This document shows, piece by piece, positions 25,052 through 41,711 of a stretch of 64,000 nucleotides of DNA. Location of the stretch: assembly GCA_965213925.1 (NCBI GenBank), contig OZ243927.1, forward strand, positions 3,616,001 to 3,680,000, written 5' to 3'. Numbering within the stretch: the first letter of the stretch is position 1; each line of letters begins with the position of its first letter. The notes below the pieces were generated by a model. The model saw only the letters and a list, made by a program, of their open reading frames with translations, did not search any database and was not told where the DNA came from. Made by a program: the position numbers and the translations under genes. The stretch is from Trueperaceae bacterium. GTDB taxonomy: Bacteria > Deinococcota > Deinococci > Deinococcales > Trueperaceae.

Positions 25052-28000
25052 CTACTTGATGCTCACCCTGTAGCAAACCTTGCCCGCCTCGCCCGCGCCG
25101 ACCTCGCCGATGGTGACGTACACAACGCCGCCATCCAGTTTACCCGCGTCGCTATCTGCGGCAGCGCTTAGGGGCGTCACCGCGCCGTCATGCGTCCACT
25201 CGATGTCTCCATCTTGCCCTGCGCCGCCGTAAACGCCCGTTGCAAATGAGGTGAAGAAGGGGATAGGGTCGCTAAAGAGGGTTTGCGTCAAGGGCTGCGT
25301 GCCCAGGTTCTGATACGCGATGCAGTACTCGAGCACCTCTCCCGGCTTGCCCGCGCCCAGCGTCGTAAAGGCTGTTCCTTGGTCGACGTTGCGAACGCGC
25401 TTGGTCAGCTCGAGCTGACCGCCCGCCGTGACCGTCGTGACGTCCGTGACCGTCTGTACGTCCGTGACATCGTCGGGATTATTGTTATAGACAAGGCTGG
25501 CGCTCAAGGTGGCTAGGTCGATGCGTCCGCTCGACTCGCCTTGGGGAACGAAGACGCGCAGCTCCAGAGCGCACGGAGCGAGGGAGCCGTCTTCCGCTCT
25601 AGGCCACGTGCTATCAACAGTGAAACCACCAGGGAGCACGTCCACCTGTTCGTTCGTTTGGATGATGCCGTCGCAGTTCGCGTCTCTAAAAACTTGGTAG
25701 GTGTACGTTCCCGAGACGTTTAACTCAACCTCGCCTAATGTGCCTGGCGCGTAGAGGTGCGTATAGCTGACCGTGCTGCCGGGGGCGACTTGTCCGCTCC
25801 CGTCGGGGCGCAAGCTGCTGGGTCTCGCGACGCCGAAGTTGTAGGTCGCACTGTCTGTGAGGGAGAAGGTAACGCTCGAGGCGTCCGCATCACCGTAGCT
25901 GTCCGCTTGCTTAATCACGCTCGAGCCGTCATTGTAGCCCGTCGCAGGCTGCTGCGAATGCGACACGGTGATGTCGTTACCGAACGTGTCGGGAATGATG
26001 AGGGTGTAGTTGCCTGCACCGTCCGTGACGGTCGTGACGGTGTTCGCGCTGTTCGCATCGTCCGTCGCCGTGATGGTCACGCTAGACACACCATGCTCGC
26101 CGACCTCTTGCAGCGCGTTGTTCGCTACGCCGCCGCTCAAACCGTCGTCATAAAAGAGCGTGCCTGAGACGATTTTACTAAACACATTGTTGTTCTGCGC
26201 GACGCTGGTGACGAGCGCGACGGTGCCTACTTCGCGGGCGTCGCTGTCTCTCGTCGGCACGTAGCTTCCGCAACGTCCGTCCGCGTCGCCGCTCGTAGTC
26301 GGCTCCCAGCAGGCACTCGTATTTGAATCCACCCCGTTAGGCGTCAAGCTGATGGATTGACCTTTGTTCGTGTTACGCAGCGAAACGTAACTACTCGGCT
26401 CGGCATCCCACAGTTTCAAAGATGCAGGCGGAGGCGTATTGATGGGCTGCTTGTCGGTGGTATTCGAGCCGTACGCGACGTAGTCTACGATGCGTCCCTC
26501 AGCGTCGTAGAGCCACATGTCGTCGCCTTCATTGCTGAGCCTCGCGCTCCTGCCCAACCACGCCTGAAACGCCGCGGGGCTCACGTCGCGGCTCACGGTA
26601 CGCTCGCCCACCCAAATGACCGCGTATTCACCCGGCGCTAACTGCACGGCGGGGAAGGTGTAGGGAATCGCCGCGTTATCAGCGTTACCGTTGATATTGC
26701 CGTTACGCCCGTCCGCGTCGTTTTCTATAAGGTTGGCGTCAACGAGTCTCCAACCGGAGAGGTCAACCGGGTCACTACTCGAGTTGTAAAGCTCAATAAA
26801 TTCGTCGTTGTTCGCGGCGCTCGTGGTGCCGCTCTGGTCGAAGAGGAGTTCGTTGATGACGATACCGCCAGCCGCCGGGGAGACGCTATAGACGTTGAAA
26901 CTCGTTGACGCTTCGTTATTGTCCAGGTCAGGGTCGGAAGCGTCTTCACCCCGACTTACCTCCGCCGTATTCGTGACCGCGCCCGTCGTGGCTTCCTCAA
27001 CGGTTGCGGTAATGGTAAACGTCGCGGTCGCGCCGCGCTTCAAGTTGACAGTTGTATCGATATCGCCTACGCCCGAGCTTGCGCCGCAGCTGCTTGCGGC
27101 TAGAGGCTCACCAGCCTGCGCGCCTTCGGTGGTGATTTCACACGTCCAGGAAATGTCGGTTAAGCTCGGCGGAAAGGTGTCTGTCACAGCTGCGTTTACC
27201 GCGTCGACCAAGCTATCTTCGGCGTTGGTCACGGTGAGGGTGTAGCTGACCGGGCCACCCACGACGATAGACGCCGGGCTGTGCGTTTTAGTGATGGAGA
27301 GGTCCGCCTCGCGGATTTCGATGCTGGCTTGTTTGGGCTCGGCGGTGGGGTAGTAGACCCAAGTGTCGATGCCTCTATGGTTGCCGAAGTCGCCCGTAAA
27401 GCTGTGCGCGGCGGGCGGCGTGACGACGCCGTCAAGCTCCCTCTGACCATCCGTAAAGATGCTGTCGTCGAAATAAATACGTCCGGGGTCGGCGATACCC
27501 GTGGTGCTGCTACCCGCAGGCGTGTTGAGGCGCGTGATGGTGACGCCTGTCGGCGCGTCTTCGACGTCCAAAAGGGGAAAGTGGACCTCACCCGCGAAAA
27601 GCCTGACCGTGGCGGTGAAGTCGCCGCTGCCCGCGGGTACGTCGTCGCCGTTGCCGTCCTTGCCGTCCCAAAAAGCTTCGGTGGTCGTGCCGGGGACGGC
27701 TGTGCCTGCTAGGACGCGCTTGGGTAAGCCGTCCCCGAACTCGAGCGTGATGTTGTAAGCGTTCGGCACGTCGTCGGCGCTCTCGCGCGGGTTCGTAAAG
27801 AAGAAGCTCCCGCCCAAGCCTGTCCCCGCTTGGTTCTCCGTTCCGTCCCTCCCGGTAAAGGTGAAATTTTGCGGGATCGGCGGCGCTTTAGGGTCCGGGC
27901 GGTAGAGCCACGTCGAGGCGGGCGTGCCCGGTCTCGCCGCTGTTGCGGGCATACTTGGGTCGGGCTCATTCAAGAAGATTTTGTGCGTGATTTCGTTGCT

Positions 28001-28186
28001 GGGGATGTCGTCGGGGTCGTCGGGCGCGTGGAAGTCCTGTCCGGCCTGGAGTTCATCGTTATCCGTCAACTGAATCGAGCGGTAGAGCGCCTTGCCTGTC
28101 TGCGTCCCGAAAGCCCTTGCGGTTGGTAAAGAAGACGAAGCCGAAGGGCTCGATGTCTTGCTCGAGTTCGTAGCGGTAGCCGTCAA
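25052..28186 (-). CDS. C-terminal part of a large secreted DUF11 / lamin-tail / SdrD-B-like surface protein (putative tip adhesin), split by frameshift
   Basis: ADLSITKT...TYTLTVTN...VTDTFP...NTAEV (DUF11), IVINEL...EFIELYN...VDLSGWRL (LTD), SGTLFYD...TDGAGNY, truncated final DUF11. No credible own start. Confidence 0.8.
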   Translation of the reverse strand: MTATATNSSKTSSPSASSSLPTARAFGTQTGKALYRSIQLTDNDELQAGQDFHAPDDPDDIPSNEITHKIFLNEPDPSMPATAARPGTPASTWLYRPDPKAPPIPQNFTFTGRDGTENQAGTGLGGSFFFTNPRESADDVPNAYNITLEFGDGLPKRVLAGTAVPGTTTEAFWDGKDGNGDDVPAGSGDFTATVRLFAGEVHFPLLDVEDAPTGVTITRLNTPAGSSTTGIADPGRIYFDDSIFTDGQRELDGVVTPPAAHSFTGDFGNHRGIDTWVYYPTAEPKQASIEIREADLSITKTHSPASIVVGGPVSYTLTVTNAEDSLVDAVNAAVTDTFPPSLTDISWTCEITTEGAQAGEPLAASSCGASSGVGDIDTTVNLKRGATATFTITATVEEATTGAVTNTAEVSRGEDASDPDLDNNEASTSFNVYSVSPAAGGIVINELLFDQSGTTSAANNDEFIELYNSSSDPVDLSGWRLVDANLIENDADGRNGNINGNADNAAIPYTFPAVQLAPGEYAVIWVGERTVSRDVSPAAFQAWLGRSARLSNEGDDMWLYDAEGRIVDYVAYGSNTTDKQPINTPPPASLKLWDAEPSSYVSLRNTNKGQSISLTPNGVDSNTSACWEPTTSGDADGRCGSYVPTRDSDAREVGTVALVTSVAQNNNVFSKIVSGTLFYDDGLSGGVANNALQEVGEHGVSSVTITATDDANSANTVTTVTDGAGNYTLIIPDTFGNDITVSHSQQPATGYNDGSSVIKQADSYGDADASSVTFSLTDSATYNFGVARPSSLRPDGSGQVAPGSTVSYTHLYAPGTLGEVELNVSGTYTYQVFRDANCDGIIQTNEQVDVLPGGFTVDSTWPRAEDGSLAPCALELRVFVPQGESSGRIDLATLSASLVYNNNPDDVTDVQTVTDVTTVTAGGQLELTKRVRNVDQGTAFTTLGAGKPGEVLEYCIAYQNLGTQPLTQTLFSDPIPFFTSFATGVYGGAGQDGDIEWTHDGAVTPLSAAADSDAGKLDGGVVYVTIGEVGAGEAGKVCYRVSIK

Positions 28187-28940
28187 TCGTTTGTACGTAA
28201 ACGTCTAAGTTGACTCTCTGGTTACCCCCTCCGAGGTTGAGTGCGTAGTAGCGGGCGAAGACACGTCCGCTCTGCGCTACACCACCGTCAAACACAGTGA
28301 CGTCCCAGGCGGTGACCCAATTGTCGTCTGGAAGTTGGCTTTGAGTTTGATCTTGACTATCTTGCACGGTCCACTCGGCAGATACCGCGAGCGGCGGCGG
28401 GTTCGTATTGTTCGCCGTCGCGGGCTGAGTGAAGTCCACCTCGTAAATACCGTCACTCGGCACGGTGAAGGTGCAAGGACGATAGCCTGACGTATTTGCG
28501 CCGAGGGGATAGTTGGGTCCAGCAACCTCTTGGGCTCGGTTGAGGATTTTGCCCGTGTTGTCCGTGCCGGGGGTTGGGCAGTTAAAGGTATAGCCGCTCG
28601 GCCCACGCACGTTGATAGCTCCCGAACCGATGCCGTTGGCAGAGGAGCCTAGCGCTACCACTTCATCTTTGTTGGCGTAGACCCGGATGACCGTGACGCG
28701 CGGGATGCCCGCTGTAATATAGTCGCCGCTCGTGCCCGTGCGGTGCTCCAAGTAGGCACGGTTGCCGCCGTTGCGAATGAGGTCTTTACTCCCTTCGGCA
28801 TAGACGGTCTGGAAAATTAAAGACGCGAAGAGGACGAGGAGTCCAAAACACCGAAAGAAGATTTGTCGCGTAGCGAACTTGTGTATAGAATCATTCATAA
28901 GGGTGTTGCTTTCAGGTGTAGAAGTGGAGCGGCGCATCAC
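28059..28940 (-). CDS. N-terminal part of the same surface protein (signal peptide; frame shifts near 28097)
   Basis: Signal peptide ...FQTVYA|EGSKDL. Reads FFTNRKGFRDAD and continues as GKALYRS in the other frame. Confidence 0.75.
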   Translation of the reverse strand: MMRRSTSTPESNTLMNDSIHKFATRQIFFRCFGLLVLFASLIFQTVYAEGSKDLIRNGGNRAYLEHRTGTSGDYITAGIPRVTVIRVYANKDEVVALGSSANGIGSGAINVRGPSGYTFNCPTPGTDNTGKILNRAQEVAGPNYPLGANTSGYRPCTFTVPSDGIYEVDFTQPATANNTNPPPLAVSAEWTVQDSQDQTQSQLPDDNWVTAWDVTVFDGGVAQSGRVFARYYALNLGGGNQRVNLDVYVQTIDGYRYELEQDIEPFGFVFFTNRKGFRDADRQGALPLDSVDG

Positions 28941-31900
28941 TGACCCCCACCGAGCAGTTCAAAGCGTAGATGCAACCCGCTCCGCGTATCTTCGTTAAGC
29001 CCATCAAAGCCTTCAAAGGTGTAACCGAGCGCCAGCCACAGGTCGTCGATCACCCGGAGCGAACCCTCGACGCTAAAAGCAGTCGCGCTACTGCTCGCTG
29101 CAGGCTGCCACTCGTGATAGACCGAGCCGCCCACGCCCGCGTCGTCCGTAAGGTAGTAGTGCCCGCCCAACGAGGCTAAGAAGGTGCTCCTCCGGTCGTT
29201 CCACAAGGGAACGCGGTAGGCAAAACCGGGGCGCAGTTGCCACCCTTTACTTGGGTGCAATGTCGGGGCGAGTTCACCCTCTAATTCGCTGCCTTCTTCG
29301 CCGCCTGTCTCCAAAGTGTGATAGGTCGAGAGGGTGAGGTAGCGGCTCCTGAGTGCGTAAGCGGCTGTAAATTCACCTTCCGCTTCGGAGGTGAGCTGAT
29401 AGGTCGCGTCGAAGGAGAGGACTTGCTGGTGGTCTAGTTGTCCGGACGCGCCGCCCCTAAAGGTGATCTTGAAGGGGTCGTCCTGCGCGCTGTCGTAACT
29501 CACCTCAGAGGACGCAGTGGCGACGAAGTCGCCCTTGCTGTAACGCGCGCCTGCGCCCGCGCTCGCTAAGGTGTTGCCGCCATTGAAGTCTTGGTCTACG
29601 TTCGCAGAGAGATCTAAGCTCCAGGCGTCGCTGAGCGGTAAGGGCGTCTCAATGCCGAAGCGGGCGCGGTTGCCGCGTCCGTCTGCGCCGGGGAGCTGAT
29701 AGGAAACCGAGAGGTTGCCGCGTCCTAAATCTTGGACTAGGGCGACGGTGCCGATGAGTTCGCCGCCCCAGGTGTAATTGATCCCTAAATCCGCCGCTAA
29801 GTTCTCGTCAATTTGATAGCTCACGCGGAAGTCGCTGATGGGGTCGGCGTCACCGAAGGGTTGCGTGTGGGCGAGTTGGAAGTTGGCGCGACCCGCCCGG
29901 TAGCCCACGCGGGCGACGGCGCTAAAGGTCTGCGCTTCCCACAAGTAGCCCGTCCCTAAGCCGAAGGTCAAGGCGTCAACGTCGAGTTCGTACAAGGCGT
30001 TCGTCTGGTTGCGGTCGCCACGAGCGCTGTGTTCGACCACGGCGCGTTGCCCTTCGCTGAAGCTGTAAGCGACTCTCGCTTGACCTTGGAGCGCGTCCGT
30101 ATAGTTGATGTTCGCGCTGGCGTCTAGCACACCTTGCGTCAGCGTACCTGAGACACCGAGTTGAGCGCGCAGGTCCTCGTCGTAGCGGTAGGTGACGCTA
30201 AAGCTCGAGCCCGCCCCCGCATAGTCCGCGTACGCGCCAAAGTGAACGCCCTCGAGTGAAACGAGCCCCGCGCCAAACGCCCAGTCACCGGTCTGGTAGC
30301 TCACGCCAGCGCCAGCGGCGAGCGTCTCGCGGGGGCTGTCGGTGGGCGCGTAGGTGACTTCGATGTGGGTTTCGACGCCGTTCACATCTGTCGGGAAGAG
30401 CGGCTTGGAGAGCGTGAGCGCGCCCGTCACGTCGTTCAAGGTGTAGTCCTCTAGGCGCTCCAGCACGCGCTCCTGTGCGCCCGTGCGCACCGTCACAGTC
30501 TCGCTGTTGGACCTGATCGGCGCAGTGCTCAAGGTGTAGCGCCGCGTGCCGTCAGGGATGATGGCTTCGGTGAGTTGGCCCTTCGGCAGGAGGCTAGCGA
30601 AGGCTCTGCCGACGAGGTCGCCGCCCGCGAAGTCGGTGCGCACCTCGCCCTGCAACGCAGTGCCGCTCGCCACGCCGTCTAACCCGGGCACGCCTAAGCC
30701 GTCGGCGTAGTAGCCCACGCTGAAGGTATCGTCATCGTAACGCGCCGCGACGAGGTCGTCCGAGCGCAAGGCGGGCTGCGCGTCGTTGCCGCTGCCTGTC
30801 AAGGGGAAGCGGCCGGAGGGGTCGTCTTGCTCAGCGATGTCGCCGCCCGTGTCGAGTGCGCCCTGAAGCGTGCCGCTCCCTAAAGGCATCTCGGCGTAGC
30901 CGCGCGCGACGCCGTTATAGCTCAGCTCACCCCTCGTCAGGTGCACGCTCACGCTGCCCTGGTAGAGGTAGAGCGGTTCGTCCGCGCCGCCCAAGTAGAA
31001 GGTCTCCTGCGTCTCTAGGTCGTTGAAGCGCGCGGTCAAGCTCGCCTCTTGCGCGGTGAGAACGGGCTCTAAACGGACGGTCGCCACGCCGTCCTCTAAA
31101 AGAACTTGATAGCCGGATTCGCCCGGAAAGGCGTCCGCCTCGAGCGGCTCTAAGTCCGTTTGCAGCGTCACCGCGCCGAAGCCGTTGGTCACGCCGAACT
31201 CGTCTGAGGCGCGGATTTTGAACGCAACCGGGGTGACGCCGTCCGCCTCGAGCACACTCGGCACGATCTCTAAAGCCTCCGGGTTGCCCGCGCGGAAGAC
31301 CTCGACCTGATCGCGCGCGCCGCCTAGCGCGACCTCGACCACGTTGCGACCGACCTCTAAAGGCACGCCGAAGTACTCGAGCCTCAAGGTCCCGTTTTGC
31401 TCGTCGACTACGCGCTTGCCCAGGGCGTCGTTCGCCACAGGAGCGCCGTTCAGTAAAACCTCGACTTCCGTGCTGAGCGGACCTTGAATGATGACGGTCG
31501 CCGCGTCCGTTGTGCGGTAGACCGTGCCGGGAAGAGGCTCGCGGATGAGCCCGTCGCGCTCAGTAGGGGCGGCGGTGTCTCGAGCGTCCCCGACCTCTTC
31601 AAAAGGGACCTCGCCCTCTAAGAAGAGGTCGCGGTTGCCGAACTTGAGCGTCAGCGAGGGTTCGGCTAGAGCGTCTAGGCTCTCTTGGTGGGTGAGGGTA
31701 TAGCGGAGCGCGCCCGCTCGCATGTAGGGAAGCTCCCAGTAGAGGTAGGTGAGCGTTTCGCCGCCCTCGTCGACTGTGCGCGTCAGGGGGTCGGGGGTCG
31801 GGTTGCCGCCTAGTCTTGAGGAGCCCGCCTCGTACGCCGCACCTGCCGGAACACGGTGGCGCACGAGCAACCTGCCGCCGTTCGCGTCCTCGACCTCTTG

Positions 31901-33643
31901 GAGGGTTCTGCCTTCGACTTGAACGCTGAAAGGAAGCGTCACCAAAGAGGTGCGCTCGGGCGTGAGAACGGGCTTGACGTCCAAGCGCGCGCCAGCGGGG
32001 AAGCCAGCAGGCGTCTGACCGATGAAGACCGAGGCTTGGTTGTCGAGCGTACCCGTGCGCCCCGGCGTCGCGACGAACTCGAAGGTTTTGCTCTCGTTCG
32101 CCTCCAAGGTAACGGGGATGACGAGGTCGCCCTCTAAACCCAACCCCTGCTGCGGCGACTCGCGCAGTTCGAAGGAGACGGTGCGTCCCAAGGGGTTCGT
32201 CACGCGCACGGTAAAGCGCGTCTCTTGACCCTCCAAAGCCGTCTCGGTCTCGGCACGCTTTTCGACCAGGATGAGGCGTCGCGTGAGCGTGTCAGGCGCG
32301 GCCACGTCACCCACAGAAGAGGTCAGCCGCGCCGTAAACTCGCCCGTTTCCTCCGCGCCGAAGCGCACGGAGGCTTCGTAGGTGTGCGTCACAGCGTCGC
32401 CCGCGGCTAAGGTGCCTTCGAAGAGCGGTGGCTCTAAAGGCTCCAACCACTCGGGCGGCAGGTCGCTCAAGGTGTAGGAGACGCTTTCGTCGCTGTCGTG
32501 GCTCACGGTCAGAGAGACCGTAACGACTTCGCCGGGCAAGACCTCGTCTAAGTCGAGGTCTCTGGTCAACATCACTGCAGCTTGCGCTTCGGGTTCCGGC
32601 GTCGGCTCGGGTTGCGGCGTTATAGGTTCTGGCGTCACCGGCTCTGGGTCCGGCTCGGGCTCCAGTTCCGTCCCGGTAGTCTGCTCCAAGACGTAGCGCA
32701 CCTGCCCGCCTCCAAAGCCAAAGTCGACCCGCGTCCCCTCACCTCTTGCGCCGTCCGTCTCGATGTCGACGAGCCTATACTCGCCCGGCACCTCCAGCGT
32801 GACGGTGCGTTCGCTGTAGCCTGTGATGCGGACGGGAATATCTAAAGGATTGCCCGCCGTATCCACCACCTCGGCGACGACGGGCTCAGGGTAGAGCGTC
32901 TTCGTCGCGACGGTGTTGGAGTACTGATACGCGCCTTTGGGTTGACGGAGGTAGACGGTGTAGGTACCGGCCTCGTCGAACTCCCAGACCTGCCACGCCA
33001 AGTCCTCCGAGACGGGCAAGCTGCGCTCGCTGCCGTCCGCCATGACGACCTTGGCCTCTAGCTCGCCCGCGCCGTCGCCGTCGTAGAGCGCGTAACGCGC
33101 GGGCACGCCCTCGCGGGGCAGCTTGGCTTGAAAGGCTTGCGTCCACTCGCCCCCGCGCACGTCGAAGAGTTCGACGCCTTCGGCGAAGCGGAGCGAGCTG
33201 ACGCTCGGGTCGGGTGTCGTTACGCGGATGATAAAGGCGTTTTTGCCGAGCCCGGTGAAGCGGCTGCGCAGGGTGTACGCGCCCTTCTCCAAGGTGCCTT
33301 CGAAGAGCGTTTCCCACTCGTGTTGCTCCACTTCGTAGCGCCTTTCGGCAATGGTGTCGCCATCTTCTAAAACGAACGCTCCGACGAGCGGCGTATCGCC
33401 GTAGCGTTCGTCGCCCAGCTCCTCGCGCCCGTCCAAGGCGGCGCGGTAGTCGTCCGGGTCGAAGCCGGGGGAGTAGATTTCGAGCTTCACCGGGCTGTCC
33501 TGACCGAGCGAGAGCGTCATCACGACCTCTTCGATTTCCCAGCCCAAAGCGTCGCCGGGCACGATGCCTTTGACCGTGTTGTTACTCTCATCAGCGAGCG
33601 CGAAAGAAGCAAATAAGGTCAGAAATAGATATAAGTACTTCAC
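28937..33643 (-). CDS. Large secreted protein with Ig/DUF11-like domains and a large C-terminal outer-membrane beta-barrel (putative usher-like platform)
   Basis: Signal peptide, Pro/Glu linker, and a C-terminal region of several hundred residues of amphipathic Gly/Tyr-rich strands ending WLALGYTF...GLHLRFEL. Confidence 0.75.
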   Translation of the reverse strand: MKYLYLFLTLFASFALADESNNTVKGIVPGDALGWEIEEVVMTLSLGQDSPVKLEIYSPGFDPDDYRAALDGREELGDERYGDTPLVGAFVLEDGDTIAERRYEVEQHEWETLFEGTLEKGAYTLRSRFTGLGKNAFIIRVTTPDPSVSSLRFAEGVELFDVRGGEWTQAFQAKLPREGVPARYALYDGDGAGELEAKVVMADGSERSLPVSEDLAWQVWEFDEAGTYTVYLRQPKGAYQYSNTVATKTLYPEPVVAEVVDTAGNPLDIPVRITGYSERTVTLEVPGEYRLVDIETDGARGEGTRVDFGFGGGQVRYVLEQTTGTELEPEPDPEPVTPEPITPQPEPTPEPEAQAAVMLTRDLDLDEVLPGEVVTVSLTVSHDSDESVSYTLSDLPPEWLEPLEPPLFEGTLAAGDAVTHTYEASVRFGAEETGEFTARLTSSVGDVAAPDTLTRRLILVEKRAETETALEGQETRFTVRVTNPLGRTVSFELRESPQQGLGLEGDLVIPVTLEANESKTFEFVATPGRTGTLDNQASVFIGQTPAGFPAGARLDVKPVLTPERTSLVTLPFSVQVEGRTLQEVEDANGGRLLVRHRVPAGAAYEAGSSRLGGNPTPDPLTRTVDEGGETLTYLYWELPYMRAGALRYTLTHQESLDALAEPSLTLKFGNRDLFLEGEVPFEEVGDARDTAAPTERDGLIREPLPGTVYRTTDAATVIIQGPLSTEVEVLLNGAPVANDALGKRVVDEQNGTLRLEYFGVPLEVGRNVVEVALGGARDQVEVFRAGNPEALEIVPSVLEADGVTPVAFKIRASDEFGVTNGFGAVTLQTDLEPLEADAFPGESGYQVLLEDGVATVRLEPVLTAQEASLTARFNDLETQETFYLGGADEPLYLYQGSVSVHLTRGELSYNGVARGYAEMPLGSGTLQGALDTGGDIAEQDDPSGRFPLTGSGNDAQPALRSDDLVAARYDDDTFSVGYYADGLGVPGLDGVASGTALQGEVRTDFAGGDLVGRAFASLLPKGQLTEAIIPDGTRRYTLSTAPIRSNSETVTVRTGAQERVLERLEDYTLNDVTGALTLSKPLFPTDVNGVETHIEVTYAPTDSPRETLAAGAGVSYQTGDWAFGAGLVSLEGVHFGAYADYAGAGSSFSVTYRYDEDLRAQLGVSGTLTQGVLDASANINYTDALQGQARVAYSFSEGQRAVVEHSARGDRNQTNALYELDVDALTFGLGTGYLWEAQTFSAVARVGYRAGRANFQLAHTQPFGDADPISDFRVSYQIDENLAADLGINYTWGGELIGTVALVQDLGRGNLSVSYQLPGADGRGNRARFGIETPLPLSDAWSLDLSANVDQDFNGGNTLASAGAGARYSKGDFVATASSEVSYDSAQDDPFKITFRGGASGQLDHQQVLSFDATYQLTSEAEGEFTAAYALRSRYLTLSTYHTLETGGEEGSELEGELAPTLHPSKGWQLRPGFAYRVPLWNDRRSTFLASLGGHYYLTDDAGVGGSVYHEWQPAASSSATAFSVEGSLRVIDDLWLALGYTFEGFDGLNEDTRSGLHLRFELLGGGQ

Positions 33644-36456
33644 GGGTATCTCCAGCGGGCGTCAGGGTCAGTGAGACCGATAGGGGCGTTTAGGTCATAC
33701 GTCAGCGTTTGCTCGCCCTCGAACGCCTCGAAGGTGAAGCGGCGCGGAGCCGCGCCGGGGACGGGGTCGCTGACGACCAGCTCGGGGAGGGGCTCGGGGC
33801 TCGAGAGGGTTAGCACCACGCGCACCCCTTCGCCCCCGTCCGGCTGGGGCAGCGCGATGAGGCGCTTCTCCACGCTGAGCGGTCCGAAGCGCAAGGTCGT
33901 CTGCCGGTAGGCGCGAATCGTCCCCGCTGGCGCAACTAGGGGAAAGTCGCTCACCGTCAGCCCTTGTAAGACCGCGCGGTGCTGGTAGCCCTCCCTCAAC
34001 CCTTCGGGATGCGGCAGCGGCGCAAAGGGCGCGGACGCCGCGTCCAGCGTCACGGACCACGCGCCCGGCGTGAGGTCGCGGAAGGTGTAGCGCCCCTCGG
34101 CGTCGGTCAGCGTCTGCCAACCGTTCGGGAGCAGCACCCGTGCGCCGGGCAGGGGAACGTCGAGGCCGCGCTCGTACGCGCAGTTCTGATTGACGTCTAA
34201 GTAGACGCGCCCGCTCAAGAGGGCGTCGGGGCGACCTAAGACGCGCTCGTCTAACGCGACGTCCACTTGCACCTCGTCGCTCACCACGACAACGCCTGAA
34301 ACCGCACCGTCGCCGAACGTGCCGCGGGCGTACGCCGTATTGCGCAGCGGGCTGCTCGCGCCGGGCTGCACGCTGAGGGCGTACGACACGCTCACGCGGT
34401 CGCGCCCGTCCGCGCTGCCTTTAGGCTCTAAAAGGAAGTCCGGCTCATTCGTCAAGTCCCACACCAGTTCGTCGCCGCGCGCTTGAGGTTCGGTGGCACT
34501 TTCGTTCGCGCCGCTTTTCACGACCGCGCTGCCCGCCACGTACGCCGTGCGCTCAGGTGGGGTGTCGATGAGGGTCAGCTCGAGCGCCACGTCGTTCGGG
34601 TTCGAGACCGTGACCGTGTAGTGCAGCGTGTCGCCGATACGCACGACCTCTTCTTCCACCGTCTTTTCGATGTTGAGGCTCAGGAGGGGAAAGGCGTGCG
34701 TGACCTCGTTCGAAGCCTTAGGCTCGGGCAACTCCTGCGCCGCCACGCGGAAGCGGTTACGCAACACAAAGCGCGCGCTGTCAGGCACATCTTCGGGCAT
34801 CTTCACGCCGAGCGTGAACGTCACGCTTTCGCCCGCGCCCAATTGCGAAACGCGCCAGGTCACGGTGCGCGTGTCCGCGTCGTACGTGCCTCCGTCCGAC
34901 GCGGACACGAAGGTCGGCGCAGGCACGCCCAGCGCGCTCCCTCCGTCCACATTTTCGAAGCCCTGCAAGGTGTCGCTGACGCGCACGTCATTTAGGTCGA
35001 AGTCGTGGTCGTTCGTCACGCTGAGCGTGTAGGTGAGCAACTCCCCTTCTCCGACCGACCCCTCCGGCTCGGCGCGTTTGACGAGGTCCAGTTCGGGACC
35101 CGCCGCGACGACCTCGTCTACGCGGTCGTAGGTGAGGTTCGTCCTGCCCGTCTGCGAAGTCGCCGTGAGGGTGACGGTGAAAGGCTGAACGAGGTCATTC
35201 GCCGTCACGCAGAACTGAAAGTTGCGGCGTTCGCCCGCGCGCAGCTCGAGGGTGCGCGGCAACGGCTCGCCACCTACACTTCTAAGCGTGCCCGTGACGC
35301 CCGCAGGCAAGCCGCTGAAGGAGACCTCGTAACGGTCTCGAGCGGTGCTCGCGTTCTCCAGCGTGTGCGTGAAGCAGCTCGCCTGAGCGTAGACGAGCCG
35401 CCCGGTTTGGGTGTCGTCGGCGCTGCCTTCGCCACCAGGATTCGCCCGAGGGTTGCCGCCCGGTCCTAAAAAGTGGAGGTTATCTCTAGTGACGTCGAAC
35501 TCGGCGCTGGCCTCGGCGGGTCCGCCGGGTCCGGTCGCGAAGGCGCGGTTCTGACGCGCGCCCGCCGCCGCACCAAAAGTGACGCGCAGGTCGAAGCGGA
35601 GAAAGGCCGCGCCGCCGACCGCGAGCGAATCGAGCCGCAGACGAACGCCGCGCACCGCCGCTGGCTCATTTTGCGTCCAGGTCGAGCCGTCCGAGTATTC
35701 GACCGTGCCTTGCGTCGCCGCCGCCGAGCCCGCCACAAAGGTGAGCCCGTCCAAGTTAGCGAGGTCGAAGTCGTCCGTGAGGACGGGACCGATAGAAGGC
35801 TGAGAGCCGTCATTGAGCAGGCGCACTTCGAAGCGTGCGGTGTCGCCGGGGCTCAAGGTAGGGCTCGAGACCGTCTTAAAGAGTTGCAGCGCCGAACCCT
35901 GGACGATCTGCACGAGCCCGTAGTTCTCCGCGTCCTCCTCGGCTGTCCCCTGACAGGTCGCGGCGGGCGAGAGCGTTTTATCGCCCGCCGCATCCGAGGG
36001 CGTCGCGACCTCTAGGATGAGCGCGGCGTCCGCGCCGCGCTCTAAGGTGAGCGACGAGACGGCCGTCTCGCCCGCGTCCAGGCGTCCGTTGCGGTTGACG
36101 TCCTCGTAGAGCGCGGTTTCGCTCGGCGTCCAGCCGCCTGCTCCTTGCGCTACGGACAGGTCGAAGGTGAAGCGGTCGTTACCAGCGTTCGTGAGCGTAT
36201 AGGGCAGATAGGCGCGCGCGCCCGCGCCCACGCTGACGCTTTGTCCCGGCGCGGCGGGCGTCCCGTTCGGCGTCAGATTAGGGGCGCAGACGGTCCGGAC
36301 CGTGGTGTCCACCTCGTTCGAGAGGTAGGTTTCGCCGTTCGCTTGCGCGCTCGCTTGGTTGCGGATAACCGTACCCGCGGGTGTGCCTGCGCCCCACGCG
36401 GCGGCGGCGATAAGCAGTGCCAAAATGCAGTGAATTGTCCTTTTCACGTGCGTCAT
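33640..36456 (-). CDS. Secreted multi-DUF11 protein with N-terminal GTPAGTxIxNQA segment and SdrD-B-like domain (putative base subunit)
   Basis: Signal peptide from ATG 36456, three K..D..N DUF11 repeats, SGRVYLDVNQN...TDAEGRYTF. Confidence 0.8.
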   Translation of the reverse strand: MTHVKRTIHCILALLIAAAAWGAGTPAGTVIRNQASAQANGETYLSNEVDTTVRTVCAPNLTPNGTPAAPGQSVSVGAGARAYLPYTLTNAGNDRFTFDLSVAQGAGGWTPSETALYEDVNRNGRLDAGETAVSSLTLERGADAALILEVATPSDAAGDKTLSPAATCQGTAEEDAENYGLVQIVQGSALQLFKTVSSPTLSPGDTARFEVRLLNDGSQPSIGPVLTDDFDLANLDGLTFVAGSAAATQGTVEYSDGSTWTQNEPAAVRGVRLRLDSLAVGGAAFLRFDLRVTFGAAAGARQNRAFATGPGGPAEASAEFDVTRDNLHFLGPGGNPRANPGGEGSADDTQTGRLVYAQASCFTHTLENASTARDRYEVSFSGLPAGVTGTLRSVGGEPLPRTLELRAGERRNFQFCVTANDLVQPFTVTLTATSQTGRTNLTYDRVDEVVAAGPELDLVKRAEPEGSVGEGELLTYTLSVTNDHDFDLNDVRVSDTLQGFENVDGGSALGVPAPTFVSASDGGTYDADTRTVTWRVSQLGAGESVTFTLGVKMPEDVPDSARFVLRNRFRVAAQELPEPKASNEVTHAFPLLSLNIEKTVEEEVVRIGDTLHYTVTVSNPNDVALELTLIDTPPERTAYVAGSAVVKSGANESATEPQARGDELVWDLTNEPDFLLEPKGSADGRDRVSVSYALSVQPGASSPLRNTAYARGTFGDGAVSGVVVVSDEVQVDVALDERVLGRPDALLSGRVYLDVNQNCAYERGLDVPLPGARVLLPNGWQTLTDAEGRYTFRDLTPGAWSVTLDAASAPFAPLPHPEGLREGYQHRAVLQGLTVSDFPLVAPAGTIRAYRQTTLRFGPLSVEKRLIALPQPDGGEGVRVVLTLSSPEPLPELVVSDPVPGAAPRRFTFEAFEGEQTLTYDLNAPIGLTDPDARWRYP

Positions 36457-36538
36457 GCGGTGACCTCGTCCTCGCTGATGGAGGCGGAATAGAATAGGTG
36501 CGTCATAAAAATAGGTGATAGAGGGTGCGTAAGATACT

Positions 36539-36572
36539 CCCTGCCCCGGCACGAGAGCGTACCGGGGCAGGG
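36539..36572 (-). promoter_or_regulatory. Strong intra-operon hairpin without U-tract
   Basis: Minus strand CCCTGCCCCGGTACG-ctct-CGTGCCGGGGCAGGG (15 bp including one G-U), 9 nt after the 914-aa gene stop. Confidence 0.7.
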
Positions 36573-36581
36573 CGAGAGGGT

Positions 36582-39326
36582 TTACTGCACGGTCACTTCG
36601 AAGGTGAGGGTGACTTCCGCGTTGGCGGGGAAGGTGTCGTCGTCATCGTTCACGACGCCGTCGCCGTCCGTATCCACGTAGACGTAGATGCTCTCGCCTG
36701 CCTCGAGGCTGAGGGGGTCGCCTGTAGTGCCGTCGCCATTTTCGTCGTCTAGGTCGTCGGTGTAGGTCACGCCGTCCACGGAGTAGAGCAGCGTAGGCGC
36801 GGACGCGAAGCCGCTCGCGCTGGCGCTCACCGAGACGAAGTCTGTAAAGGCGGGCAAGGGGTCGGAGATGACGACCTCGGTGAGGTCGGCGTTGCCCAGG
36901 TTCTTAGCGACAACGGTGTAGGTGATGGTTTCGCCGGGCGCAGCCGTGGCTTTGTTCACCGATTTGTCGAGGCTCAGGTCGCCGCTGACTACGGTGGTGC
37001 GGTCGATGACAGAAGCCTGGGCGGTGTCCGTGTCGCCGGTGACAGAATCCGGGAAGGTCGCGGTTGCGGTGAGCGTTAAGACGTTGACGTCATCAGGGTT
37101 GTAACCCTGGGGCGCACTCACCCGGACGAAGAGGGACTGCGTGTCGCCGGGCTCGAGCGTCGCAGGCAGCGTGAGGCTCGAGTCGTTGAGCCCATAGAAG
37201 GTGGTGCCGTCATACGAATAGCTGTAGTCGAAGTCCACGCCGCTCTCGCTCTCCGTAAGGCTGATCGCGGTGAGGTCCCGGTTACCCGTGTTGGTGATCG
37301 TGTGCTCGTAAGTCACCGTGCCGGGCGAGGTGATGTCGCTGTCGCGGTCCGGCGAGAAGGTGAAGGTGTTAGCCTCGTTCACCGTGACGGTGTTGAGGTT
37401 GAAGGTCACGGGCGCGATATCGGGCGAGTCGATAGTCTGGTTGACGGTCGCCGTCTGCGGCGTCGCGCCGCTCGGCACGCTCACAACTGCGAAGACGGTG
37501 ATCTCTTCGTCCGGGTCGACCGAGCCGGTGTTCGTGATCGGGGTGAGCGCGTCCAGCTCAGCCTGGGTCACGGTGCCGTCGCCGTCTGCGTCTGGGTCGG
37601 TCGCGTAGTAGACCACGCTGACGGTCGTGGGTCCGAAGGTGACCGAGCCGTCCAGGGTGAACGTATCGCTGTTGCCGCCCGTATTCACCACGTCCATCGG
37701 GAAGACGACGATGTCGCTGGAGTCAGCGTCTTCGTTGACGCTGTTCGCATTGTCCACTCGCCCGTCGGTATCGTCAGCGACGATATCGTTACCGGCATCG
37801 TCGGCGTCTGCGTCGTTACCGAACGCCACGCCCGCGCCCACGATGTCGTTAATGGTGTTCGTAGTCGGGTCTGACGTGGAGCTGTCCGTGACTGAGGTCG
37901 CAGTGACGACGACGCTATGAACCACGTCACCGGTGTCGCCGCCATCATTATCGGTTGGCGTGTCGCCAGGAATCCGCACGCGGACGATGAAGTCGAAGGT
38001 TTCGCCTGCGCCTAGCGGTCCGGTATCCGGCACGCCGTCGCCGCCGGTCGGCAGCGCCGCGCCACTTGTCGAAAGGAGCTGGACGGTCGCGTCACTCGGT
38101 AGGTTGAGGTCGTCCGTATTCACTGTGAGGTTGAAGGTGTCGGTGTCGGTGCCTGTGTTCTGGACGGTATTGGTGAAGTCTACGGTGCTACCAGCGTTAG
38201 CGCTCGCGACAGTCTGAACGTCGCTGGGATCGCCATCAGGGTCGCCGTCTGGACCGAGTGCGACGCCGATGGAGGCTTGTACGTTGGTCGTAGCGGTGTT
38301 CGTCGTGATCGTTCTCGTCGTCCCAGCGTTGTTCGTGTAGGTGACGTCCGCGTCGTTATTGATGGAACCTGGCGTAGTCTTCGTGACGGTCACGGGGATG
38401 GTGAGGGTCACGCTCTGGCGGGCGGCGACGGTAGCGAAGGTCGCGGTGATTTCGGGTGTGGCTCCGGAGGTGTCTACGCTGACACTACCGCTCGTAGGGG
38501 AGGTAGTGGCGGGGTTGCTGGTGTCGTAGGAGACGCCACTAGGCAGCGTATCGCTAATCACAATGTTCGTCGCGTCGGCTGACCCCGTGTTCTCCACGGT
38601 GATGGTGTAGGTGAGTGAGCGCGCGCCGCTGGCGGGAACGGACGTCTGACTGACCGACTTGTTCGGGACGATCGCCGCGTCTTCTACGACGTTCGTCCGG
38701 TGGTAGTTGTTGTTGTCGACTTTGGTTGCATCGCCCTGGCTCGTGGCGACCGGGGTGGCGATGACGACGTCGTCGCTCGAGTCGGTCGTGTCGACGCCTG
38801 CCGGGACGTCATAAGCCATGATGAGCTTGCGCGTGTTGGCACCGTCCGTCGTCGTGGCGGGCAGCGTGACCTCGGTCACGGCGGTGTTTTCGCCGGACTG
38901 CAGCACACCGTCACCGTTGTCGTCGATGTAAAAGGTGATGTTGGCGGGCGTGACGTGGGTGGCGTCTGTTAGCGAGGTGTCTACGGTGCTCGTCAACTGG
39001 AAGGTGTCCGTGCCGTTCCCCGTGTTGGTGAGCGTGTAGGGGTAGTACACAGGGCTGCCGGGGATGGCGTCGCGGGTCTGACCGGGCGCGGCTACGTTGC
39101 CGTCAGGCGTCACGCTCACGCCGTAGACCTGCTGCACGGTGGTGATGACCAGGTCGGAGTTGACCGACTGCGGGTTGCCCGCCGAGTCGATATAGTCGGC
39201 GGTCGCCTGGTTCTCAATCTGGGTGCCTGCGGCGGTGCCGGCGGGGGTCTGTGTCTGCGCGAACGCTTGCGGCGCGAGGACCAGAGCCGCGAAGAGCAGC
39301 GCCAAGGCGGGGCGTATAGGTATCAT
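36582..39326 (-). CDS. Secreted acidic multi-Ig/DUF11 protein (putative major fibre subunit)
   Basis: Signal peptide AFA|Q, repeated TxTNTGNxxDTFxL domains, DxDGDG loops, N-terminal donor segment and truncated C-terminal DUF11. GGAGG RBS. Confidence 0.85.
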   Translation of the reverse strand: MIPIRPALALLFAALVLAPQAFAQTQTPAGTAAGTQIENQATADYIDSAGNPQSVNSDLVITTVQQVYGVSVTPDGNVAAPGQTRDAIPGSPVYYPYTLTNTGNGTDTFQLTSTVDTSLTDATHVTPANITFYIDDNGDGVLQSGENTAVTEVTLPATTTDGANTRKLIMAYDVPAGVDTTDSSDDVVIATPVATSQGDATKVDNNNYHRTNVVEDAAIVPNKSVSQTSVPASGARSLTYTITVENTGSADATNIVISDTLPSGVSYDTSNPATTSPTSGSVSVDTSGATPEITATFATVAARQSVTLTIPVTVTKTTPGSINNDADVTYTNNAGTTRTITTNTATTNVQASIGVALGPDGDPDGDPSDVQTVASANAGSTVDFTNTVQNTGTDTDTFNLTVNTDDLNLPSDATVQLLSTSGAALPTGGDGVPDTGPLGAGETFDFIVRVRIPGDTPTDNDGGDTGDVVHSVVVTATSVTDSSTSDPTTNTINDIVGAGVAFGNDADADDAGNDIVADDTDGRVDNANSVNEDADSSDIVVFPMDVVNTGGNSDTFTLDGSVTFGPTTVSVVYYATDPDADGDGTVTQAELDALTPITNTGSVDPDEEITVFAVVSVPSGATPQTATVNQTIDSPDIAPVTFNLNTVTVNEANTFTFSPDRDSDITSPGTVTYEHTITNTGNRDLTAISLTESESGVDFDYSYSYDGTTFYGLNDSSLTLPATLEPGDTQSLFVRVSAPQGYNPDDVNVLTLTATATFPDSVTGDTDTAQASVIDRTTVVSGDLSLDKSVNKATAAPGETITYTVVAKNLGNADLTEVVISDPLPAFTDFVSVSASASGFASAPTLLYSVDGVTYTDDLDDENGDGTTGDPLSLEAGESIYVYVDTDGDGVVNDDDDTFPANAEVTLTFEVTVQ

Positions 39327-39367
39327 CTTTCCTCCATAAAATGTGGGATTAAATTGACGTCGCGGGC

Positions 39368-39895
39368 TTAGAGCACCCGCACGCGGTAGACGAACGTGCG
39401 CGCCTGACCCGGACCTAGTTCGCTGAGCAACTCCCAGCGCACCGCGTCGTACTGCGCGGGCTCGGCCGCCACCTCTTGCGCGTCGCCGTTTTCGTCCATA
39501 ACGGTGACGGTCGGCGCGGCGCTAAAGCTTTCACCTTCGTCGGCGCTAAAGGTGAGGTCGGACCCTCCTTCGCCCGTCGCCGACGCCGCGAGGTAGTGCG
39601 TGCGCTCGGGCACCGGACCCGTCGCCGCGACGCCTTCAGGGATCACCGTTTCGCTCTCGTTCTCGAGCGTGAGGTGATACTCCAGAACCTGACCCGGCTC
39701 GGCGACGTCGGTAGGGACGAGCTGTTCCTCGACTGTGCCGTCCTCTAATATCACCTCCGTCACAAGATAGCTCTCCAAGGTGACCGCCAACGGCGTTTGC
39801 GCCTGGGCGACGCCCATGGACATCCCTACGACGCCAAAAATAAGGGCGCAACAAAAGATGGGGCAGAAACCTAGAGCGGACCGGTAGTGTTGCAT
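39368..39895 (-). CDS. Small secreted single DUF11-like domain protein (putative chaperone-like subunit)
   Basis: Signal peptide AQA|Q, AEPGQVLEYHLTLEN...GPVP...VRWEL..LGPGQARTFVYRVRVL. GAGGAGG RBS. Confidence 0.8.
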   Translation of the reverse strand: MQHYRSALGFCPIFCCALIFGVVGMSMGVAQAQTPLAVTLESYLVTEVILEDGTVEEQLVPTDVAEPGQVLEYHLTLENESETVIPEGVAATGPVPERTHYLAASATGEGGSDLTFSADEGESFSAAPTVTVMDENGDAQEVAAEPAQYDAVRWELLSELGPGQARTFVYRVRVL

Positions 39896-40336: not shown

Positions 40337-40370
40337 AACAAAAAAGCGCCACGTTCCAGACGCGGCGCTT
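40337..40370 (-). terminator. Intrinsic terminator downstream of the SLH gene
   Basis: Minus strand AAGCGCCGCGT-ctgga-ACGTGGCGCTT-TTTTGTT. Confidence 0.7.
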
Positions 40371-41568: not shown

Positions 41569-41711
41569 TATGACCTCCACTTCAGAGTATGCCAGTTTAA
41601 CAGGGCGATGATGTGTTGCATGGTGAAGTGTAGATGAGGAACTCTTCATGGAGCGTTGGCGCGGGGAGATCAGGGCCGCCTCCGCATAGCGGTCTCCACA
41701 CAACAATAGTT

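Follow-up and report, generated by a model that had tools for sequence, protein, structure and literature searches.

In a 64,000-nucleotide stretch of a Trueperaceae bacterium genome, referred to here as the window (assembly GCA_965213925.1, contig OZ243927.1, positions 3,616,001 to 3,680,000), five co-oriented genes on the minus strand, g1 to g5 (window positions 25052..39895), encode proteins that may assemble into a covalently locked surface fibre. In the reading that we favour, to which we assign a probability of roughly 0.6, the proteins form a chain of the order g5 - n g2 (n at least 1) - g3, joined by complementation of split domains and anchored on g4. The domain concerned is DUF11, since renamed CLIPPER, a member of which was found by crystallography to hold an intramolecular isopeptide bond made by Lys715, Asp748 and Asn806 (PDB 9IFR; PMC12617251).

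The proposed assembly would proceed as follows. All five proteins would be exported by Sec, to judge from their N-termini. The donor strands at the mature N-terminus of g2 or g3 are predicted to insert into the acceptor domain of another subunit, a g5 or a g2, and to complete its fold; as in the triad of the solved CLIPPER domain, a seated donor would bring Lys, Asp and Asn together, and an autocatalytic Lys-Asn isopeptide bond would then lock the junction. In the resulting chain the N-terminus of every subunit would be distal, with the head and lamin-tail domain of g5 at the tip and the C-terminal module of g3 at the cell, where the giant outer-membrane barrel of g4 would hold the base and probably pass the folded chain. 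The weakest step concerns g1: as a cap or chaperone in the periplasm, it would most likely hold free donor strands in a reversible complex that gives way to a reactive acceptor. The genes and the parts of their products on which this scheme is built are listed below, all on the minus strand.

39895..39368, minus, g1: 175 aa; secreted single truncated DUF11-like domain, acceptor shape
39326..36582, minus, g2: 914 aa; tandem Ig-like/DUF11 domains with N-terminal donor and C-terminal acceptor; candidate shaft
36552..33640, minus, g3: open reading frame of 970 aa, or 938 aa from Met33 (36456..33640), which precedes a signal-peptide-like segment; candidate base
33643..28937, minus, g4: 1568 aa; signal peptide, conserved N-terminal domain, Pro/Glu-rich linker, DUF11-like and Ig-like domains, C-terminal beta-barrel
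28940..28059 (293 aa) and 28186..25052 (1044 aa), minus, g5: two frames, span 25052..28940; candidate tip
39129..39257, minus, g2 donor: residues 24-66, two strands; Asn39 codon 39212-39210
36585..37004, minus, g2 acceptor: residues 775-914; Lys788 codon 36965-36963, Asp822 codon 36863-36861
36298..36390, minus, g3 donor: reading-frame residues 55-85; Asn65 codon 36360-36358
33643..34335, minus, g3 C-terminal module: residues about 740-970; SdrD_B/CarboxypepD_reg-like, small Lys896/Asp929 domain, tail ending RWRYP
28940..31006, minus, g4 barrel region: residues 880-1568
25055..25474, minus, g5 acceptor: last 140 residues; Lys codon 25402-25400, Asp codon 25270-25268

Gene cluster and domain content

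An earlier note on this DNA, drawn from the letters alone, had described five co-oriented secreted proteins of 175, 914, about 938, 1568 and, after repair of a frameshift, about 1290 aa, with overlapping stop and start codons in the last three genes. The open reading frames (ORFs) bear this out: as called, g3 and g4 overlap by 4 nt, as do g4 and g5, the repaired g5 comes to 1295 aa, and every product has, by eye, a hydrophobic start resembling a signal peptide. DUF11 (PF01345) was matched by g2, g3 and g5 with 85.2, 87.7 and 65.9 bits, respectively, against a cut-off of 24.6 (E 5e-24 for g2), and the seven DUF11 matches in the genome (4.75 Mb) all fall inside this cluster. The same three proteins matched TIGR01451; g1 fell under the cut-off (18.6 vs 24) and had no Pfam match. 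Complete Lys/Asp/Asn triads can be seen by eye in internal domains of g2, g3 and g5. Residues 627-741 of g3 match TIGR04226, an NCBIfam model of an RrgB-type isopeptide domain (E 1e-10), and residues 782-838 match Pfam SdrD_B. Reading from its N-terminus, g5 comprises a head that belongs to no known family, one complete DUF11 domain, a lamin-tail domain (Pfam), a stalk and the C-terminal acceptor, and it carries no donor.

Division of the terminal domains between proteins

Since short donor peptides by themselves found nothing in Pfam, even at E 10, we built a local hidden Markov model (HMM) of the complete domain, 134 positions long, from the cluster proteins and their orthologues. Aligned to this model, the last domain of g2 ends at position 94-95 with the final residue of the protein in 20 of 20 sequences; on the Pfam profile, which has 114 positions, the same acceptor is confined to 1-59. 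In g5 the last domain breaks off at HMM positions 90-95 in 18 of 24 sequences, the six misses being mostly Meiothermus forms with an insert, and g1 ends at positions 94-96 in 7 of 16 (residues 63-175 of the window g1 align to positions 14-95). For the window copies of g2, g5 and g1, the final residue falls at positions 93-95. The remainder of the model was matched by N-termini. Residues 28-64 of the window g2 align to positions 95-129, and 18 of 18 g2 orthologues match about 95-132 at their N-termini, with individually weak scores (independent E value 0.008-8.5). Even weaker matches at the same positions were obtained for g3 N-termini (16 sequences), among which the donor of the window g3 was not reported; the g3 donor motif was seen by eye in the window and in 16 of 19 orthologue N-termini.

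The converse searches delimited which protein carries which half. No donor-like match was found with the local HMM at g1 N-termini, nor at the N-termini of g5 (26 from the loci and that of the window) save one at chance level (independent E value 27), and no match to the DUF11 HMM reached the C-terminus of g3, either in the window or in 27 g3-like ORFs from the loci. By these alignments, the acceptors of g2 and g5 are DUF11/CLIPPER domains cut just before the last two strands, and the donors of g2 and g3 correspond to those missing strands; the predicted break falls in the same loop in three types of protein, with the missing piece carried by two other N-termini. Since g3 has a donor only and g5 and g1 an acceptor shape only, these proteins would be unable to complete themselves, which favours completion in trans over completion in cis. 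These donor-only and acceptor-only proteins are the main argument for trans assembly, and it is one from sequence and conservation rather than from a fold model. The assembly-line distribution that the earlier note had proposed, with an acceptor at the tip (g5), both halves in the shaft (g2) and a donor at the base (g3), is thus recovered in the HMM ends and the N-terminal matches, as is its reading of g1 as a lone acceptor-like domain.

Two related observations were made by eye. The tail of g3 itself has a conserved Asp that could close its last domain; the idea that the N-terminus of g4 completes that domain was dropped, because neither the window g4 nor 38 g4-like ORFs gave a donor-like match. 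Two Deinococcus proteins of 513-520 aa (P0170 and P0174) have a g2-type donor start and a last domain that seems to extend past the usual break, and may represent a self-sufficient or differently wired variant.

Residues of the predicted isopeptide bond

In the terminal domains the triad is divided, with Lys788 and Asp822 in the tail of g2 and Asn39 in its head. The spacing from Lys788 to Asp822 is 34, compared with 33 in the solved CLIPPER domain. Both acceptor residues are kept in all g2 sequences (20/20) and all g5 sequences (23/23), and at the same columns of g1 neither is found (Lys 0/16, Asp 0/16, with Ile, Gly or Val in the Asp column). On the donor side, 17 of 17 g2 orthologues have Asn39, Gln40 and Ala41, at an overall identity of 36-46%. 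A set of 10 sequences drawn from several phyla also keeps Asn39 throughout, and neither Asn39 nor Asp822 varies once proteins named from Polaromonas, Usitatibacter and a Sericytochromatia genome are added. Separately, in two proteins that appear to unite base and barrel, from loci L076 and L119, Ser occupies the position of the donor Asn; a junction formed by these would be non-covalent.

These residues bear on whether the strands, once exchanged, are locked. Strand complementation could operate without a covalent bond, as in chaperone-usher pili and the Pam pili of the candidate phyla radiation (CPR), with Lys, Asp and Asn retained for stability of the fold only. Pili of this non-covalent kind are common (PMC13278184; PMC10104325), some DUF11 domains lack an isopeptide bond (PMC12617251), and the two base proteins with Ser for Asn would fit such an arrangement. 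We nevertheless regard it as improbable: the three residues are invariant at 36-46% overall identity, Lys and Asp are both gone precisely in g1, and the same triad makes the bond in the solved domain (PMC12617251).

Predicted donor-acceptor complex

Modelling of each C-terminal domain with each N-terminal segment had been suggested in the earlier note as a check, and we carried it out for the tail and the head of g2. Residues 770-914 of g2 with residues 24-220 of g2 gave an interface score (ipSAE) of 0.83 (0.82, 0.83 and 0.83 in individual runs), compared with 0.00 for the best of three controls; among solved complexes 116 of 157 attained the mark used for this score, and among mismatched pairs 2 of 215. 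The runs shared at least 93% of their contacts, and both partners had a predicted local distance difference test score (pLDDT) of at least 89. On one side of the predicted interface lie residues 782-790 and 813-823, with Lys788 and Asp822 among them, and on the other residues 37-48 and 55-67, with Asn39 among them. The AlphaFold2 (AF2) model of the g2 monomer is an all-beta array (pLDDT 78.8, predicted template modelling score (pTM) 0.39). A fold search with it returned generic tandem-Ig proteins only, and sequence searches of solved structures with g3, the two g5 frames (g5a and g5b) and a g2 profile gave only a chance antibody light chain.

The monomer model also raises the question of whether there is any assembly in trans. 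The proteins could be separate monomeric adhesins of the envelope, the N-terminal strands of g2 folding back on its own C-terminal domain and the other truncated domains being degenerate. In the monomer model of g2, the donor has a pLDDT of about 89, and monomers of TasA self-complement (PMC9715654). This account would leave g3 with a donor and no acceptor, and g5 and g1 with an acceptor shape and no donor, yet with Lys and Asp of g5 kept in 23 of 23 sequences; it also sits poorly with the single break point in all three acceptor types and with the occurrence of the partner genes together across distant lineages. We judge it very improbable.

Conservation, gene order and fusions

Conservation of gene order across Deinococcota was a second check suggested in the earlier note, and the order proved to be conserved, with metagenome loci adding to it. 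A genome scan based on g4 yielded 37 loci, in Trueperaceae, Meiothermus, Calidithermus, Thermus, Oceanithermus and Deinococcales; in these and the other loci ORFs were mapped on one strand. All five genes stand in order in 12 of the 37, and most of the others are cut by contig ends. Detectable g1 is missing from one locus (L015) and detectable g5 from another (L022). Of the 28 loci that offer 1 kb or more of upstream sequence, 25 have a g3-like gene as the immediate upstream neighbour of the g4-like gene (hand count), and the C-terminal tail of g3 is conserved in most of the orthologue C-termini compared. A metagenome scan with g2 gave 80 loci, 50 of them with a donor-bearing g2-like ORF; most of the other 30 are on short contigs or have ORFs whose starts are over-extended. 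Within the 50, and counting loci with enough flank, the truncated acceptor ends 36 of 37 complete ORFs, a g1-like ORF is immediately upstream in 40 of 44 and a g3-like ORF is next in 27 of 29. The same gene set was also found in loci from outside Deinococcota. The frequency of g1 could not be read from profile matches in the same way: among 1.84 billion representatives its profile had 21,044, a count that is uninformative on this point because the best 150, almost all giant DUF11-repeat proteins, match only the generic N-terminal half of the profile.

Natural fusions suggest how the parts are ordered. In locus L029 one protein of 3076 aa opens with a g5-type head and closes with the C-terminal module of g3, and its gene lies just before a g4-like gene. 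This protein is colinear with the proposed chain, which fixes the polarity, head distal and g3 module proximal. On the same contig (255-23073), the genes for this single-chain giant adhesin and a barrel are directly followed by a split g1-g2-g3-g4 set. Two further giants are less complete: in L023 (2751 aa) the head is present and the g3 module follows in the next ORF, beyond a masked stretch, and in L030 (3330 aa) the 5' end is cut and the g3 module is the only part seen. In divergent loci, the third gene (1464-2260 aa) has a donor-like start and a C-terminal half resembling the g4 barrel (HMM E 2e-10 to 2e-5); for one of these, L085, comparison with g4 by hhalign gave a probability of 98.4% (E 8e-15, 852 columns). 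These proteins resemble g3 only in the common SdrD_B-like domain. They appear, from the donor and the barrel and not from the RWRYP tail, to be fusions of base and barrel, and the apparent presence of base and barrel in one protein ties g3 to g4.

Among g5 proteins the head is variable and the tail conserved across loci. A Meiothermus locus (L024, 15869-25809) has three tandem g5-like genes with differing N-terminal parts and the same conserved acceptor tail, which suggests exchangeable tips; it has no bearing on the copy number of g2.

The giant proteins lead to a competitor of the polymer. A single copy each of g5, g2 and g3 could be ligated into a stalk of about 3100 residues on g4, a giant adhesin whose gene has been cut within two CLIPPER domains. 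The single-chain giants of 2751-3330 aa, with head and/or g3 module (both only in L029), have a length near that of g5, g2 and g3 together. Moreover, the g2 and g3 donors differ from each other as conserved sequence types, and so do the g2 and g5 acceptors, so that pairing could be specific; the pairing of g2 with g2, for its part, comes from one model in which cousins of the true partner can pass. Against this, g2 has both a donor and an acceptor, the g2-g2 model scores 0.83 compared with 0.00, and repeated insertion is not barred by the sequence. We consider a three-piece adhesin unlikely, though less so than the other rivals, and continue to favour a chain in which g2 may be repeated.

The g4 barrel

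The last 689 residues of g4, modelled with AF2 from 31 sequences, gave a pLDDT of 86.8 and a pTM of 0.77. The model has about 38 long antiparallel strands (hand count of the DSSP assignment) and a small Ig-like insert at model residues 141-223, in keeping with the large outer-membrane beta-barrel that had been attributed to this protein from its sequence. Ushers have 24 strands and the barrels of type Va autotransporters 12. With Foldseek the barrel matched LptD, MtrB and FimD/PapC at template modelling (TM) scores of 0.17-0.32, FimD and PapC lying at 0.2-0.32 among generic large barrels; with VIA-align it matched porins (Z about 13), PapC (Z 10.9), the Deinococcus SlpA complex (Z 9.3) and NalP (Z 8.8). 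Pfam gave neither an usher nor an autotransporter match. By its model, then, g4 would be an outer-membrane barrel larger than any of its fold matches, built as one barrel or two, and the matches show no specific kinship. An atlas search of proteins with the N-terminal domain of g4 and the head of g5 returned scores of at most 0.87 only. One further feature of g4 lies between its N-terminal and Ig-like domains, and might span the periplasm or the cell wall:

32582-32683, minus, g4 Pro/Glu-rich low-complexity linker: residues 321-354

Relatives of the barrel region number 75, and all named ones are from Deinococcota. With E <= 1e-20 the g4 family was found in 195 of 301 sampled genomes of the phylum (177 of 260 of good quality); it has no functional name in the source annotations. 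This distribution lends itself to another account, in which g4 is a structural outer-membrane protein of Deinococcota and g1 to g3 and g5 are accessory layers or periplasmic tethers on it. In its favour are the 195 of 301 genomes, three loci in which g4 is alone, a gene for an SLH-domain protein just upstream of the cluster and the weak likeness of the barrel to the Deinococcus SlpA complex (Z 9.3). On the other hand, a strong terminator separates the SLH gene, the gene set occurs outside the phylum as well, and g5, with a variable head and only its tail conserved, looks like an adhesin. A scaffold of this kind seems to us rather improbable.

Points that weigh against the proposed fibre

A number of observations count against the chain g5 - n g2 - g3 on g4. 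All support for a fibre, a bond and a filament comes from sequence, conservation and predicted structure. The score of the g2 complex may reflect likeness to an intact DUF11 domain, does not distinguish trans from cis, and lets cousins of the true partner pass too. The donor of g2 is also placed with confidence in the monomer model (pLDDT about 89), so that self-complementation is possible for g2. Taken one by one, the donor matches to the HMM are weak, and that of the window g3 was not reported; acceptor matches were missed in 6 of 24 g5 and 9 of 16 g1 sequences. The base proteins of L076 and L119, from other lineages, have Ser for the donor Asn. The giant single chains have roughly the length of a g5, a g2 and a g3 combined and fit n=1 equally well. 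The window g5 is frameshifted, though public contigs contradict the shift. Three loci (L031, L034 and L035) have a g4-like gene with the conserved N-terminal domain and no partner ORF on the same strand in the flanks, and the g4 barrel family may have a function of its own. Finally, in the phylum the g4 family occurs much more often than the five-gene cluster has been shown to, and a wider role of g4 is therefore possible.

Other assembly machinery

The earlier note had seen no sortase, LPxTG motif, prepilin motif or PapD/PapC-like sequence, and both profile and motif searches agree. In the genome, which is 96.9% complete, there was no match to Sortase (PF04203), PapD_N (PF00345) or Usher (PF00577); the PapD_N search was positive in an Escherichia coli control. 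No LPxTG or prepilin motif was found in the six ORFs of the cluster, and no lipobox in the first 45 residues of any of them. Nor did the six ORFs give a Pfam match to the TasA/camelysin-type family, the subunits being DUF11 arrays. The DUF1102 'tafi' fimbriae, which came up by word match only, are unrelated.

Relation to known systems

The principle of strand exchange followed by a covalent lock is already known. BsaA of Clostridium perfringens exchanges strands and then forms an autocatalytic Lys-Asn bond, as tested by mutagenesis (bioRxiv 10.1101/2024.11.04.621531). In this member of the TasA family the N-terminal segment enters the sheet of the next subunit and donor N35 is joined to acceptor K74 with E56 as catalyst, in the absence of a sortase; Asn39 or Asn65 of the donors here, with the acceptor Lys and Asp, make up a residue set of the BsaA type, a likeness of mechanism only. 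BsaA belongs to another fold family and is a single-domain subunit of a monoderm, with no outer-membrane barrel and no separate genes for tip, base and cap, whereas the subunits proposed here are multi-domain proteins of 900-1300 aa in a diderm. Threads of Sulfolobus acidocaldarius (Saci_0406) likewise combine strand complementation with a proposed intermolecular isopeptide bond, are heat-stable and need no sortase (PMC9715654). There, Asp24 is linked through its N-terminal amine to Asn57 in subunit n+2, and not by a Lys-Asn bond between neighbours; the subunits are small, glycosylated, archaeal and unrelated in sequence (PMC9715654). With these two systems and the solved DUF11 triad in print, the remark in the earlier note that no mechanism had been described is out of date.

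Compared with chaperone-usher pili (Fim, Pap, CupE), the cluster has candidates for the same set of an acceptor-only tip adhesin, a shaft subunit with both halves, a donor-only terminator, a small periplasmic helper and a large outer-membrane barrel, all co-encoded. It differs in that two strands would be donated, not one, that the link is predicted to be covalent, and that the helper would keep hold of donors and give no strand of its own; the g4 barrel, moreover, has about 38 strands, is C-terminal in its protein and is apparently fused to the base subunit in other lineages. The distribution of donors and acceptors fits the tip, shaft and base of the chaperone/usher-like layout that had been proposed; the standalone g4 genes and the apparent base-barrel fusions favour 'anchor' at least as much as 'usher' for g4.

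Pam pili of the CPR have multi-domain pilins in which a truncated Ig-like domain at the C-terminus is completed by the donor strand of the next subunit, and an anchoring terminator (PMC13278184). They are non-covalent ('isopeptide' and 'covalent' occur 0 times in the text), use membrane-anchored chaperones that donate strands, and belong to cells with no outer membrane (PMC13278184). Gram-positive sortase pili share Ig-like pilin domains with Lys-Asn (or Lys-Asp) bonds (PMC5487036; PMC6539128), but the bond between their subunits is made by sortase at LPxTG, and neither was found in the cluster genome or ORFs. Type V pili of Bacteroidia are built from a lipoprotein precursor with a lipobox that matures by proteolysis, and the cluster ORFs, as noted above, have no lipobox in their first 45 residues. 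CLIPPER fibrillar adhesins have the same domain family and triad; the survey of them treats the bond as intramolecular and does not use the term 'strand complementation' in its text (PMC12617251), whereas the terminal domains of the cluster are split between two polypeptides.

The predicted junction also has an engineered parallel. In isopeptag and SpyTag-SpyCatcher, Ig-like domains have been split into two pieces that religate spontaneously. These are laboratory constructs; the split in the cluster appears to be natural.

In the literature that we searched, which left most subscription journals outside, no description of strand-complemented DUF11/CLIPPER fibres in diderms was found. What would be new is the split CnaA-type CLIPPER fold, its setting in a diderm with a giant dedicated barrel, the separate genes for tip, shaft, base and cap, and the spread across phyla. 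Of the earlier proposal of a diderm pilus that combines isopeptide bonds with strand complementation, the logic of the split domains and the invariant Lys, Asp and Asn stand up well; the g2 polymer, the bond, and the chaperone and usher roles of g1 and g4 are still a matter of interpretation. If true, the proposal would add a further route to pili in outer-membrane bacteria, one that is covalent, catalyses itself and requires neither sortases nor the chaperone-usher pair. It would provide a natural counterpart of the tag/catcher trick of protein engineering, with heat-stable natural ligation pairs to be had from thermophiles such as Thermus and Meiothermus, and it would assign a role to the giant barrel family that about two thirds of the sampled Deinococcota genomes possess.

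A broader generalization can be put forward tentatively, and is to our minds somewhat doubtful as a whole: that such split-CLIPPER pili form a widespread, undescribed class of diderm fibre spanning Deinococcota, Proteobacteria and Sericytochromatia, with subunits that polymerise by natural tag/catcher junctions made from a split CnaA-type domain and need neither a sortase nor a PapD/PapC pair, export and anchoring through the barrel of about 38 strands, which would rank with the largest barrels formed by a single chain, and g1 as a new kind of chaperone, a dead acceptor that holds donors. One g4 homologue is named from Meiothermus silvanus, a species reported to attach to steel by thread-like organelles (PMC3035272, citing earlier work). 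We take these threads as a lead, not as evidence; they could equally be type IV pili.

The frameshift in g5

The two frames of g5 are separated at one site:

28091..28100, minus, g5 frameshift site: one extra base, near 28098

Without the base at 28098, g5 is a single frame of 1295 aa. The g5 orthologue in a genome of the same genus (G002) has an intact frame of 1962 aa, and the window is one base longer at the site. Logan contigs from two sequencing runs, X1 and X2, of one sample from one study omit one base at 28098; in X1 the omitting contig is the sole contig over the site, and in X2 it is otherwise identical to the window. The sample is possibly the source of the genome. Because public contigs omit the base and the same-genus orthologue is in frame, we take g5 as probably intact, the shift being an assembly error or a minor variant. 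Programmed frameshifting was considered and dropped, as the site has no slippery run or homopolymer, the same-genus orthologue is in frame and there are contigs without the extra base. The genome record probably has an indel error at 28098, and other apparent frameshifts in the assembly deserve the same caution. In a second genome of the genus (G001, loci L040/L042) the g5 orthologue is broken elsewhere, the match being split near query residues 117-159 with internal stops. Taken with the break in the window, this means either that tips are often inactivated or that the assemblies share a type of error.

Surroundings of the cluster and the g3 tail

Just upstream of g1 lies the SLH-domain gene mentioned above (window 40489-41706, minus strand; 405 aa), which ends in a strong terminator-like hairpin:

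40344..40370, minus, terminator-like hairpin: 11-bp stem, 7 G-C pairs, followed by a T run

With the SLH gene terminated by this hairpin, the cluster begins a transcription unit of its own. The 405-aa protein may be a tether from the outer membrane to peptidoglycan of the SlpA kind. The downstream neighbour of the cluster is an unrelated short-chain dehydrogenase. At the other end of the g3 gene from its donor, the g3 orthologues finish in a strongly conserved LTDP..RWRYP tail (window 33643-33680, minus strand), which follows the small domain with an invariant Lys and Asp; the Asp of this tail could close the small domain through a Lys-Asp bond, or the tail could dock on g4.

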